Source of the DNA: Eledone cirrhosa
Lineage: Eukaryota
NCBI GenBank assembly: GCA_964016885.1
Contig: OZ024740.1
Coordinates: forward strand, 112,282,001 to 112,346,000
Length of the DNA stretch: 64,000 nucleotides
Direction of reading: 5' to 3'
In this document: in pieces, positions 8,534-27,510 of the stretch
Layout: the number at the start of each line of letters is the position of its first letter
Position numbering within the stretch: the stretch's first letter is position 1
Made by a program: the position numbers and the translations under genes
Notes under the pieces: model-generated
Told to the model about the DNA's origin: nothing
What the model saw: the letters and a program-made list of their open reading frames with translations, nothing else
Database searches by the model: none

Positions 8534-9050
8534 GGTGCTTTGTTCAATGAGCTGTTGTTGACTATAGCCATGGTGACAATATTTATGATGAATCCTCCGT
8601 CGATTGTGACGATAAGGATTCGGTTATTTTTATCAGAGTTGATTAACAGGTAGGTGTTTCCACATGGTGTATTTCATATATAAGTTTATTCTTAACGCAA
8701 TTTTCAAACCAAATCAGTCTGATCCGATATGGAAAGACTGGGCATTTTACATAACAGATAAAATCCATCCGACGGGCTTCCACACACTTTCTGTTTACAC
8801 GATTTCAGTCACAAAACTTGAGTTGATCCGAGGCTATGGTAAGGACACTCTATATATTTAATGTAAATGGGAGAAAAATAGGGAGGCATGCAGAAGACAA
8901 ATGAACGGAAAACAAAACAAAAGTCTTGGGCTTCAGCTGTCTCCTATCGGATCAGTTGTTTCGCAACCTCCGAGGCAGGAGTGTGTTTTATCACGATTAC
9001 AGCACTACAAGTGACACTTTCCAATATATATATATATATACATACAAAAT

Positions 9051-9608
<558 letters not shown>

Positions 9609-14224: not shown

Positions 14225-14228
<4 letters not shown>

Positions 14229-14381
14229 GGAAATCAGTAAAATCAATCTCTGGCCGTTTGCAAGTAAATTCGGCCTACTTATATGAAATGATAAGTTAGC
14301 AAAGCACTCGATAAGATAGAGCCTTAGAGTAATAACATACGTTTAAATAGCTTGACAAATCGAACATTGTGGTAGGCGAAT

Positions 14382-14385
<4 letters not shown>
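14225..14385 (-). mobile_element. Family Y fragment between (TA)n tracts
   Basis: AGCACTCGATAAGATAGAGCCTTAGAGTAATAACATACGTTTAAATAGCTTGACAAAT matches the conserved family Y block. Confidence 0.6.
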
Positions 14386-14459
<74 letters not shown>

Positions 14460-23661: not shown

Positions 23662-23755
23662 TGTATGTATATTCAAACGAATGGAACATTTCTATTTAAT
23701 AGTGCTTTTCTTCTGTTCCTCTTCAAAAAACCTTTCTTAATTTCATATAAATATA
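23662..23755 (-). repeat. Left arm of a 94-bp inverted repeat (partner 27381-27474)
   Basis: Reverse complement matches 27381-27474 with one mismatch. Confidence 0.9.
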
Positions 23756-23763
23756 TATATATA

Positions 23764-25918
23764 TGTAAAAACCCACCTACAAACCCTCACCTCGATGCTT
23801 TCGAACAAGATTTAATGGAAATGACCATGAACATTAAGTTCAACAAACATAGAAATAATGAGCTGCAGAACAACATGAAAGCACTACTCCGAAGATTGCA
23901 AAATACCAATGGAATTGTTGTGAAAGCTGACAAGACTTCTAACGTGTATACCATGGATATCGATACGTACAATAACTTCATACGCAACGAACTACACAAA
24001 AAATATAGAAAAACAAATGAAACTACGCTAGCAAATATTAACAACGAGGCATATAAAGTGGTGAAGAATCTCAAAATAGACGATAGAACCGAGCCGATTA
24101 TACCCGCTACCCCCACCTTCAACCTGAAGGACCATAAGGTAAATTTTGACTCTAACCCTAAGATCAGACTTATATGCCCTTCTAAATCAGACATAGGGAA
24201 AATTAGCAAACATATACTTGACAGAGTAATAACTCAAGTGAAAAAGAAAATTGATATTAAATTATGGGGCAACACTAGCGAAGCAATTCGCTGGTTTAAT
24301 AATGTTAAGTATAAGAATAAATCTAACTTTATACAATTTGACATAGACGAATACTACTCTTCCATCTCACCAAGCACTTTACGTAAGGCCCTATCGTTTG
24401 CTAAGGCCAATTCCGACCTAACGGAAGACGAAATTAATATTATTCTCGAGGCTAGAAAAACCATTATTAAGTTCGATAACTGCTACTGGGAACGTAAGGA
24501 CAGACCCACAAATTTCGATATTACCATGGGTTCCAACGACTCGGCGGAGGTCACGGATCTCGTGGGAATTTACATAGCCCACATATTACATAGTAAATTT
24601 AGTAATCTACAGGGGGGGGGGGATATACAGAGATGACGGGCTCTTATTAGTTAATAACTTGAATAATCAAAATCTTGAAAGGCTACGGAAAAATATTAGA
24701 AAATCTTTTAGTGAACTGGGTCTAAAAATAACATACGAATACAATCTTAAAGTAGTAAACTTTCTGGACGTAACTCTTAATTTAAATACCGGACAGATAC
24801 GACCCTTCCACAAGGTAAATGAGAACCTTACGTATATTAACTTTAACTCTAACCACCCACTCTCCATGATCAAATCAGTTCCCCGGAGTATTTCTCTTAG
24901 AATCTCTCGCCTATCGTCTAACTCTGATATTTTTAGTGAACACGCTGAATACTACAATAATGCATTAAGGAATGCTGACCACCGGGATACAATAGAATAC
25001 ATCGATAGGAATTTCCATAACACACATAGCTCTACACGAAATCAAGGAATACGTAACCGGGGGACTAAAACACAAGCACACACACACAGTACTACCAGAC
25101 ATACTAATAATAGAAGATCACCACCAAATAAATCACGTTGTAGAAAGTATATCTGGTACAATCCTATTTTTAATGCCTCGATTAGTACAAAACTATCTCT
25201 TTCATTCTTTAAATTAATCAACAAACATTTCCCTAGTTCCCATAAATACAGCAAAATTCTGAACTCTAAAACTATTAGACTATCATACTCCACGGCACCA
25301 AACCTTGAAGCATACATAAAAAAACTTAACTTAAGGCAATTAAACAACTCTACAAAACAAAACATTTTAGTAACAGATGGGCAGAACGCAATATCTGCCT
25401 CCCAACAACTAAATGGGAGACGTGTATTACTCAACCCACCTGTACCGCTATCACAACCTATCCATGGTATACCCGCTACCCACAACAAAGAATGTAACTG
25501 CCATCTACCTGAAAGATGTCCATTGAAGAATGAATGCCTAAAGTCCAACATTGTTTACCAATGCACGGTTGAATCGAACGACCAGAAATGGTATTATATC
25601 GGATCTACCACCACATCGTTTAAATCTCGCTGGTACCGTCATCGATTCTCAATCAAGCATCCGAATCACCGTTTTGTGACCACACTCGCCAACAAGACCT
25701 GGCAACTCCGTGAACACAACCAACAGTTCACCTTAAAATGGGATATACTTTCCAGCGCAAGTGCATATCGGAGTGGATTGAAGTACTGCAGGTTATGTAA
25801 CCTTGAGCTATTTTACATATTAAAATCCCAAAACAAACTACTTAACGATAGAATAGAACGATCATTATACTGCAACCACAAACTAAAAGTTAAATTCTCT
25901 CACTATAAAATAACTTAA
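23764..25918 (+). CDS. Naiad-type Penelope-like retroelement ORF: reverse transcriptase + GIY-YIG endonuclease; 5'-truncated, frameshifted at G11 (24612-24622)
   Basis: Motifs ADKTSNVY, LKDHKVNF.SNPKIRLICPSKSDIGKISK, FIQFDIDEYYSSI, FDITMGSND, YRDDG (across the frameshift), NFLDVTLNL, IWYNP, IRLSYS, CNC-CPL-C, IVY...YIGST, CRLC, CNH. Confidence 0.93.
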
Positions 25919-26409
25919 CATTCGAACCCATAACTATAACACCACTTTCTAGCTAACAACCTTCTCTTACCCCCACACTACAAGACAATACACTGCTTAT
26001 CACTATACATGGTAACTCAGTGCAATTCCTAGATTACTACTACAAACCCAAAGTTCACTCACCACACATACTTTGTCTGTCTCCTCTCTACCTATCTCTC
26101 TCTACATCCATTACACTCTCTCTCTCTCACCTTTGACCTACCTCCCTCTCAACATCTATGAACCTGCCCTCTGAGGCAATAAATAATTCCGACCTTAACT
26201 ATCAACGCATCTCTCCAAAAGTAACCAGTATAATAAAACCCCTACCATAACATTTTGATTAAGATATCTACAAGCCACTCTCTCCTACTTCTCCAACCCC
26301 TGCATATCTTTCTTTCTCTCTCCCTCTTCCCTACTTTTCTCTCTTCCTGTTCTACTCTATCTTCCCCAACAACCCACTTAAGGGTATTTACATTGTACAT
26401 TTACCATTC

Positions 26410-26521
26410 TGCTCTGAGGAAACAGTGGTCACAGCATTGGATATTCGAGTTCTGCAAGTACTTGTGAATTTGCACGTAGCGTAACTAGGCTGCAGTACCA
26501 CCGTGGAAACACTTGTAAGCA
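26410..26521 (+). ncRNA. Type I hammerhead ribozyme with ~85-nt extended stem II
   Basis: TGCT-CTGAGGA-A-ACAGTGGT...ACCACCGT-G-GAAAC-ACTT-GTA-AGCA; stem I TGCT/AGCA; GUA cleavage triplet. Confidence 0.75.
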
Positions 26522-26568
26522 CACGGAATAAATTACCTTTTTATGATGTCTACCTGTTATTATTCATT

Positions 26569-26640
<72 letters not shown>

Positions 26641-26641
26641 G

Positions 26642-27359
26642 TTAGTACAGCATTGACGAAGCTTTAGAATACGGTCAAGCTAGCGTATATGCATAATCGG
26701 TCTGTAGCTTGAGCACTCAGATGAGGAAAGACCCCAGAGTAATAACATTACGTTCAGACAGCTTAGCAAATCAGATATAGCGGTCGGCAGTCCAGCCGCA
26801 TCACTAGAGCAACGAAAATACAGGACCCAGGAAAAGATTTTATACTGACCCGGCCATAGCGGGAGGCTGAGTGCAAAATATATAACTTACATATATAGCA
26901 TCCAACATCAGCGCTAAGTTTCTGCAAATCCAAGATCGACAAATTCCTATTGCAGGAGTCTGCAATATAATGGTTTTTGACGACAGAACATAGGATTTAC
27001 TTCTTCAGCAAGTCTTTCATTCTTAGCCTGAGCGGGTATGTTGTAGCATTAAATGTCGCCACAGACACGTGGTTTACTCCAAGGGAGGTAACCCCCGCTT
27101 AGGCGGTGAATTCTAATTTGAGATAAAGGAATGAATCCCTTTAGACAAACCGAATAAAGCACTCAACAAGAAGTTATCAAACAAACTTAAACAATTAATC
27201 AATCAATAGAATCATCTAATTAAATTAATCAGTTAATCGTTAATTCTAGGAGTAAATATAAATTTTAGTACAGCATTGACGAAGCTTTAGAATACGGCCA
27301 AGCTAGCGTATATGCATAATCGGTCTGTAGCTTGAGCACTCAGATGAGGAAAGACCCCA
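26642..27359 (-). mobile_element. Family Y non-autonomous element with 95-bp terminal direct repeats (623-nt period)
   Basis: 26642-26736 equals 27265-27359 (one mismatch); no ORF; TA-rich flanks; HHR-like fold 26912-27034 on the minus strand. Confidence 0.8.
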
Positions 27360-27380
27360 ATACATATATATATTTATTTA

Positions 27381-27510
27381 TATATTTATATGAAATTAAG
27401 AAAGGTTTTCTGAAGAGGAACAGAAGAAAAGCACTATTAAATAGAAATGTTCCATTCGTTTGAATATACATACAATTGCTTAAACTTTAATCTGTTATTT
27501 TAATAAATAT
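27381..27510 (+). mobile_element. Short (TA)n-inserted element, family X (3' end GCTTAAACTTTAATCTGTTATTTTAATAAA)
   Basis: The same 3' end occurs at 32345-32370 (minus) and 32784-32815 (plus); 5' part is the right arm of the 94-bp IR. Confidence 0.65.

Follow-up and report, generated by a model that had tools for sequence, protein, structure and literature searches.

An element at positions 26,642 to 27,359 of a 64,000-nt stretch of the Eledone cirrhosa genome (contig OZ024740.1, positions 112,282,001 to 112,346,000; the window) ends in direct repeats and carries on its minus strand the motifs of a hammerhead ribozyme. What sort of element is this, and what has become of its ribozyme? The original prediction described a retrozyme-like unit whose hammerhead folds in the type III manner and lacks the U of the NUH cleavage triplet. 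It was explained as either a decayed type III retrozyme or a conserved non-cleaving or variant RNA. The many relatives of the element in the same genome allow each part of this description to be examined.

Organization of the Element

The 623-nt unit extends from 26642 to 27264, and its first 95 nt recur at 27265–27359 with 94 of 95 positions identical. The longest ATG-started reading frame in this copy has 22 codons. The predicted unit, its repeat and its lack of an ORF therefore stand. The minus-strand motifs quoted for 26912–27034 are likewise present, as is a diverged second copy at about 9045–9476, 68% identical to the window unit. The G-U pattern and the folding indicate that the minus strand is the RNA sense; strand and anatomy, like the fold, core and end distribution described below, are read from the sequence. 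Units of subfamily A, to which this copy belongs, are typically about 647 nt long, and the window copy is short by about 24 nt within stem III of its ribozyme. The parts of the element and its two relatives in the window are as follows.

26642..27264, minus strand: full unit, 623 nt, subfamily A
27265..27359, minus strand: 5′-truncated second unit (the "95-bp direct repeat"), whose outer end is the variable 5′ end of the insertion
26573..26645, no strand assigned: (TA)n target tract and fixed 3′ end, the putative priming site; sister copies have TA runs here
27161..27253, minus strand: conserved 5′ domain, an 18-bp hairpin (27241–27190) inside a 6+4-bp stem, from helix ranking and RNAalifold
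26649..26822, minus strand: conserved 3′ domain adjoining the priming site, with an 8-bp helix (26810–26803/26668–26661) and a covarying hairpin (26741–26714)
9045..9476, minus strand: subfamily B copy, 5′-truncated, with core at 9442–9436, GAAAC at 9354–9350 and an intact GUC at 9261–9259
14226..14386, minus strand: subfamily C copy, a short 5′-truncated fragment between (TA)n tracts

The helices of the 5′ domain are the top two of the helix scan, with 3 and 1 compensated columns, and RNAalifold also recovers them. Only two helices exceed all 20 column shuffles, and both lie on the minus strand. The conserved 3′ domain, 26649–26822, is a candidate binding region for a reverse transcriptase (RT). 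Rfam identified no ribozyme in the window or the element, its one match (E 8.8) being a chance one; this is expected for a core divided by long inserts. ARAGORN found no tRNA within the 64-kb window. Elsewhere in the window, from 38342 to about 48600, a 48-nt sequence is repeated in tandem some 209 times, and long open frames run through it on the minus strand; the one frame tested, of 533 aa, has no Pfam match.

A Dispersed Family with One Fixed End

The genome searched comprises 1,796 contigs and 3.0 Gb in all. The three copies in the window served as queries and yielded 2,432, 2,771 and 1,724 first-look candidates, which are not copy numbers, and 40 were scored for each query. Lower bounds come from exact patterns. 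A 3′-domain motif has at least 1,251 matches in the genome and its control none, and the 5′ half of the ribozyme has at least 3,309, against 95 for the reversed pattern; by the same means there are at least 282 matches for subfamily A and at least 880 for subfamily C. Clustering of 126 long copies gave six subfamilies with at least 10 members each (A–F, 114 copies in all) that are 57–83% alike. The element is thus one of many copies of a non-coding repeat unit of about 580–650 nt with a type I hammerhead layout. Further diverged subfamilies (loci L289–L318), about 61–66% identical to the six, keep the split hammerhead, and one of them has a 581-nt unit. In the literature covered, outside which lie Repbase, Dfam, most subscription journals and supplements, we found no description of this family or of cephalopod retrozymes.

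The copies have one end in common, which is 26642 in the window, and the opposite end varies. A TA run adjoins the fixed end in 58 of 62 first-unit copies of subfamily A and in 60 of 62 of subfamily C. Most copies are shorter than one unit, and 52 tandem copies extend about 41 to 397 nt into a second one. Since the fixed end is common to the copies and the other differs from copy to copy, the 95-nt repeat is the overlap of a 1.15-unit copy and not an LTR. Terminal repeats of 95 bp are therefore a property of the window copy and not, as had been supposed, of the element as such.

The repeats at both ends of the window copy, together with a unit size that falls in the 600–1000 nt given for plant retrozymes in the available part of PMC5680766, might still call to mind a deleted LTR element (TRIM) or a plant-type LTR retrozyme. 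We give this hardly any credence, as the repeat varies so widely in length and is absent from most copies, there are no TG..CA ends, no TGG primer site follows either repeat, and the ribozyme is internal and of type I.

The fixed end, the variable 5′ ends and the partial tandems form the pattern of target-primed reverse transcription of an RNA from the minus strand, with which the conserved minus-strand fold agrees. The insertions display a fixed 3′ end, 5′ truncation, partial tandems (pseudo-LTRs) and a microsatellite target, as do those of Penelope-like elements (PLEs). The available text of PMC8557442 counts inverted 5′ pieces among PLE traits, together with partial tandems and microsatellite targets, and one inverted 5′ piece occurs among the present copies (locus L429). 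Some loci hold two ribozyme 5′ halves one unit apart; these are rare, and the window copy has a single ribozyme. In three loci (L007, L047 and L055), two family copies lie in opposite orientation, and those in L007 and L047 belong to different subfamilies. One (TA)n tract may have been used repeatedly, or these may be two-armed insertions.

The Predicted Hammerhead Is of Type I

The core CTGAAGA, the base of stem II and the GAAAC segment of the predicted fold are real and conserved across copies. It is the topology that differs. Stem I does not close beside the core as a type III fold would have it; its 5′ strand, 27013–27009, pairs with 26852–26848, 160 nt downstream and straight after a cleavage triplet of which the G and U are paired with GAAAC. 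The original prediction is thus correct in seeing a retrozyme-like element with a minus-strand hammerhead core, and mistaken as to its type. The elements of the ribozyme are listed below, all on the minus strand.

27002..27013: stem I 5′ strand (27013–27009) and core C3–A9 (27008–27002, CTGAAGA); an extra A lies at 27001
26924..27000: long stem II, with an 8-bp base (27000–26993 with 26931–26924) and an internal branched domain
26948..26967: compensated hairpin within stem II, in which subfamilies A and B differ by 2 compensatory changes
26918..26923: extra A (26923) and G12-A13-A14-A15.1-C15.2 (GAAAC, 26922–26918)
26856..26917: long stem III insert, 26–88 nt across subfamilies
26848..26855: triplet 16.2-16.1-17 (26855–26853) and stem I 3′ strand (26852–26848); predicted cut 26853/26852
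26828..26832: downstream arm able to pair with the stem I 3′ strand, a putative alternative, ribozyme-off hairpin

With a stem II insert of 76–82 nt and a stem III insert of 26–88 nt, the ribozyme spans 115–180 nt. Its core was counted in 106 ungapped copies of the 114 in the six subfamilies, 8 having been dropped for gaps. The cleavage triplet is GUC in 98 of the 106, and the base at 16.1, a position singled out for checking, is U in 104 in the type I alignment. The 3–8 pair is formed in 104 copies, as C-G in subfamily A, U-G in B, D and F, and U-A in C and E; the C/U difference noticed at position 3 is real and belongs to this series. At least four of the five stem I pairs are formed in 104 copies and all five in 84. 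All core tests are passed by 71 copies, the main loss being U4C in 12 of 18 copies of subfamily D. Positions 15.3–16.3 are paired in 25 of 30 scorable copies, as C-G or A-U according to subfamily, and are U·U in subfamily A.

An independent view of the distant stem I strand is given by a pattern holding the 5′ half alone. It led to 30 loci. GUH and a complete stem I follow downstream in 20 of them and in 0 of 30 control windows; 8 others have one or two substitutions in GUH or stem I, and 2 are unrelated. RNAalifold, given the majority sequences of the six subfamilies, found stems I and II unprompted, with −79 kcal/mol for the minus strand against −41 for the plus strand. In a formal count over 36 copies, 94.4% of pairs are formed, compared with 19–45% in slid controls, and 89.6% of the stem II cells are paired. 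This set was chosen by a pattern holding both strands of stem I, so that its 100% stem I pairing is there by construction; for stem I we therefore rely on the 106-copy counts and the 5′-half search. Covariation in stem I is one-sided only, and the number of pairs with two-sided change (2, in stem II) is not above that in shuffles (369 of 500). Short motifs were also compared by eye with the consensus motifs of hairpin, twister, HDV and group I ribozymes, and such readings were dropped once the type I fold fitted all subfamilies.

Could the family nonetheless hold a type III hammerhead, decayed or non-cleaving, without the U of NUH? Such a fold can be drawn on the window copy and makes use of the genuine core, stem II and GAAAC. 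Across the six subfamilies, its stem I is paired in 53.5% and its stem III in 36.1%, its 15.1–16.1 pair in 0 of 36 copies, and every subfamily has the canonical type I solution with GUC. The GGC and GAC that were taken for triplets lie upstream of the core, the true triplet being downstream of it, and the diverged copy, thought to be without the U as well, has its GUC in place. A decayed or non-cleaving type III retrozyme is for these reasons very improbable, and the family lends no support to animal ribozymes of type III or with a non-NUH triplet.

The window copy itself does have GGC at the true site, by a coincidence with the GGC of the original prediction. The change is private to it among 27 copies of subfamily A and indeed among the 106. 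At contig depth, three runs of one sample have the family base at 26854 throughout. With U16.1 changed to G, the single ribozyme of the window copy is predicted to be dead, and that of the family is not.

How active the family ribozyme may be is a separate matter. When forced, the active fold costs 0.8–8.5 kcal/mol (7 copies). One unpaired base on either strand separates the core from the 8-bp base of stem II, which gives A·A in subfamilies A–F, and subfamily A combines its U·U at 15.3–16.3 with two G-U pairs in stem I. The A·A offset, these features of subfamily A and the U4C of subfamily D could weaken cleavage. Precedents exist for part of this. PLE hammerheads with a U3-A8 pair and with an additional base following A9 appear in the accessible part of PMC4209133; U3-A8 is also known outside them, and U·U at the base of stem II is tolerated, according to the portion of PMC3088659 available. 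The 5′ extra base is accordingly a known PLE trait, and for the 3′ one, the A before G12, no description was found in the literature consulted, part of it in incomplete text. This second extra A is a real doubt about activity.

The arm at 26832–26828 is a candidate off-switch. In 34 of 36 copies it can form at least four of five pairs with the 3′ strand of stem I; since the copies were counted by a motif search, the figure is partly circular. RNA circles are said to need a switch of such a kind in the part of PMC7229834 available.

Insertion Ends near the Predicted Cut

About 212 nt separate the predicted cut from the fixed end on its 3′ side, and the variable 5′ ends of the copies can be placed relative to the cut. 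The first sample consisted of the first 100 of the at least 1,251 3′-domain matches, representing 99 insertions. Of the 84 copies at risk, 26 stop within the 25-nt window just 3′ of the cut, and the rate in other windows is 7.0% (p 6e-11). The same 25-nt window holds 18 of 47 ends against 6.1% in a fresh sample of subfamily A, which overlaps the first in part, and 13 of 47 against 3.8% in one of subfamily C, which has no overlap with it. The ends of shortened copies cluster between the stem I 3′ strand and the downstream arm at 26828–26832. They peak 7–21 nt short of the cut, and few lie exactly at −1 or −2. The ends of second units show no distinct pile-up near the cut, with 4 of 11 at risk, like the neighbouring windows. 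Subfamily A at first seemed to be without the pile-up (1 of 19 against 25 of 65, p 0.005), which was not replicated, the fresh sample of 62 first-unit copies giving the 18 of 47 above.

One could suppose that the pile-up is a preference for joining at A/T-rich microhomology to (TA)n, and that the element is an ordinary 5′-truncated PLE derivative. The exact end points do use TA microhomology, being often on TA or A runs, and 7 of 18 ends in subfamily A fall at one TATA. However, the pile-up window has 56–64% A+T and 1–4 TA/AT steps, whereas the windows 25–74 nt further on have up to 80% and 12–14 steps (subfamilies A and B) and take few ends, 2 of 27 and 3 of 25 in subfamily A. The pile-up also recurs in subfamilies with different local sequence. 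Joining preference as the cause is therefore improbable. The pile-up likely means that the motif stops the enzyme, probably of Penelope type, by which the element is copied.

What, then, would stop the enzyme? A helix acts as the template boundary in telomerase RNA. By analogy, the ribozyme might rarely cut, and its folded junction, the alternative hairpin or a bound protein would be a boundary that stalls the RT on an uncut, more-than-unit transcript or a circle. The peak at −7 to −21 is at the foot of stem I and not at the cut, and subfamilies with weakened cores (A and D) pile up too. At three subfamily C ends (L371, L376 and L436, among the 64 ends shown), a 15–17-nt stretch next to the cut on its 3′ side occurs in two or three tandem copies, as though the RT had stalled and re-aligned, which may resemble re-alignment in the telomerase style. 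Moreover, the anole PLE ribozyme requires protein and is dispensable in vitro (PMC11167929). Three observations sit badly with a mere boundary. Stronger helices, the 18-bp hairpin and stem II, are without a comparable pile-up in most windows, the catalytic bases and GUC are kept across subfamilies only 57–83% alike, and a few ends do lie exactly at −1 or −2. We regard a boundary without cleavage as a serious minority possibility.

Tandem copies bear on the state of the template. The second cut site is passed by 7 of the 52, so that some templates were circular or uncut, or were jumped between.

A Penelope-like Neighbour

Beside the element lies a candidate for the kind of enzyme that would copy it.

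23768..26572, plus strand: neighbouring 5′-truncated EN+ PLE, with an RT with YRDD, a Cys-rich linker and GIY-YIG; one frameshift

This PLE, which by its motifs we take to be Neptune-like, is a separate element placed tail-to-tail with the retrozyme-like copy. It has a type I hammerhead of its own with a long stem II, at about 26410–26522. Its family is young, the best 40 copies being 98–100% alike over the 3′ 676 nt, and has the same (TA)n target and partial-tandem habit as the retrozyme-like family (loci L274–L288). The neighbour thus illustrates a candidate enzyme class for the family, and the genome holds 10,597 GIY-YIG candidates. Sequence common to the unit and a PLE was found in none of 30 GIY-YIG loci, a sample far too small for the 10,597, and in none of 14 other loci of the neighbour's family. 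PLE pieces beside two family copies were considered as partners and proved to be unrelated neighbours.

Some further observations concern this locus. Stem II of the neighbour's hammerhead is about 95 nt and likewise begins with a purine–purine offset. Of 14 copies of the neighbour shown, 5 have a further fixed 3′ extension, of about 145 nt in four, compared with a 30–40-bp PLE tail in the part of PMC8557442 available. An inverted duplication of 106 bp (96%), at 23662–23767 and 27369–27474, brackets the PLE and the retrozyme-like copy, so that flank DNA to the right of the latter recurs inverted at the PLE 5′ junction.

Comparison with Known Elements

By its testable features, the family appears to belong with the animal non-LTR retrozymes, as described in the available parts of Cervera and de la Pena (2020, PMC7229834) and Li, Clavereau and Pollet (2026, 10.64898/2026.07.22.740005). 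Both have non-coding units, one type I hammerhead, monomers and tandems, and co-occurrence with PLEs. Those texts give RNAs of about 170–400 nt with compact ribozymes, often in full tandem arrays, whereas the present units of about 580–650 nt are mostly dispersed partial copies; vertebrate family lengths reach 972 bp in the portion of the 2026 work available (10.64898/2026.07.22.740005). Compared with what these sources describe, the present ribozyme is enlarged through its long stems II and III, the whole unit keeps a conserved fold, and the positions of insertion ends can be compared with that of the cut site.

The likeness to the pLTR hammerheads of EN+ PLEs is also close, as far as the accessible sections of Cervera and de la Pena (2014, PMC4209133) and Craig et al. 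(2021, PMC8557442) describe them. It comprises the extra base after A9, a 5-bp stem I, a longer stem II and the U3-A8 variant, and, for the elements themselves, partial tandems as pseudo-LTRs, microsatellite targets and an occasional inverted 5′ piece. In these sections, the PLE hammerheads of metazoans act as dimers and their stem III is minimal or absent, in contrast to the long stem III found here, and a long stem III is described for fungal and protist PLEs (PMC4209133, PMC8557442). The second extra A before G12 and the lack of an ORF also set the present family apart from what is given there.

The Poseidon element PAc of Anolis (Frangieh et al. 2024, PMC11167929) inserts into AT-rich DNA, and its RT begins copying downstream of a hammerhead at fixed sites within the RNA, as proposed here. 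PAc is autonomous and its start site is not homologous to the target, whereas a TATA-like junction in the present family could pair with (TA)n. No PAc RNA ends were found at the cut (PMC11167929); here, genomic 5′ ends pile up beside the predicted one. Plant LTR retrozymes, in the parts of PMC4918200 and PMC7229834 available, are alike in unit size class, in being non-coding and in having a hammerhead, but they have LTRs, a PBS and a type III fold, and the present family is without all three.

A Model for Mobilization

We propose, with a probability of about 80%, that the element is a dispersed, non-coding and non-autonomous retrozyme with a type I hammerhead, mobilised by a PLE. Support comes from the conserved stems and core, the fixed TA end, the pile-up of ends, the tandems that run past two sites, the many GIY-YIG candidates of the genome and the young PLE family next door. 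Transcription, cleavage, ligation and the PLE enzyme enter the proposal as putative steps. More-than-unit transcripts would cleave themselves after GUC to give a monomer that could be ligated to a circle. A PLE RT-endonuclease would bind the conserved domain and nick (TA)n, and copying would begin at the fixed internal site, some 212 nt from the cut on its 3′ side, where the TATA-like stretch at the junction might pair with the (TA)n primer. On cleaved linear RNA, or at the folded ribozyme, the RT would stop after about 190–212 nt, so that short copies pile up. If the template were a circle or uncut RNA, it would run round to make 1 to 1.6 units, the overlap of which would appear as a "direct repeat", and the window copy would be such an insertion of 1.15 units.

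Given an element of this class, the odds that cleavage causes the pile-up are about even. In the anole PLE, internal initiation downstream of the hammerhead was shown in vitro, and cleavage was dispensable for insertion with no RNA reads ending at the cut (PMC11167929); the latter results count against the cleavage model here. It is tempting to go further and to picture an old, radiating family of structured RNA circles of about 600 nt, in which a split hammerhead with large inserted domains and an on/off hairpin cuts in the germ line, and the ends of thousands of genomic copies record a PLE RT that starts at one internal site and runs off at the cut. We put this picture slightly on the doubtful side of even.

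The role of the hammerhead in PLEs is stated to be unclear in the part of PMC8557442 available, and the link between PLEs and retrozymes rests mainly on co-occurrence and pLTR similarity in the accessible texts of PMC7229834 and 10.64898/2026.07.22.740005. Ribozymes split by inserts of this size escape Rfam and short-stem descriptors, so that similar families have probably been missed. What is new, and most worth testing, is the pile-up of 5′ ends within 25 nt of the predicted cut. Insertion ends beside a cut site offer a direct and inexpensive way to ask whether the template is bounded by cleavage or by folding. If the fuller picture is true, a genome would for the first time have supplied written evidence that the template is defined in vivo by a hammerhead of the PLE type and that pseudo-LTRs arise by copying round a circle.
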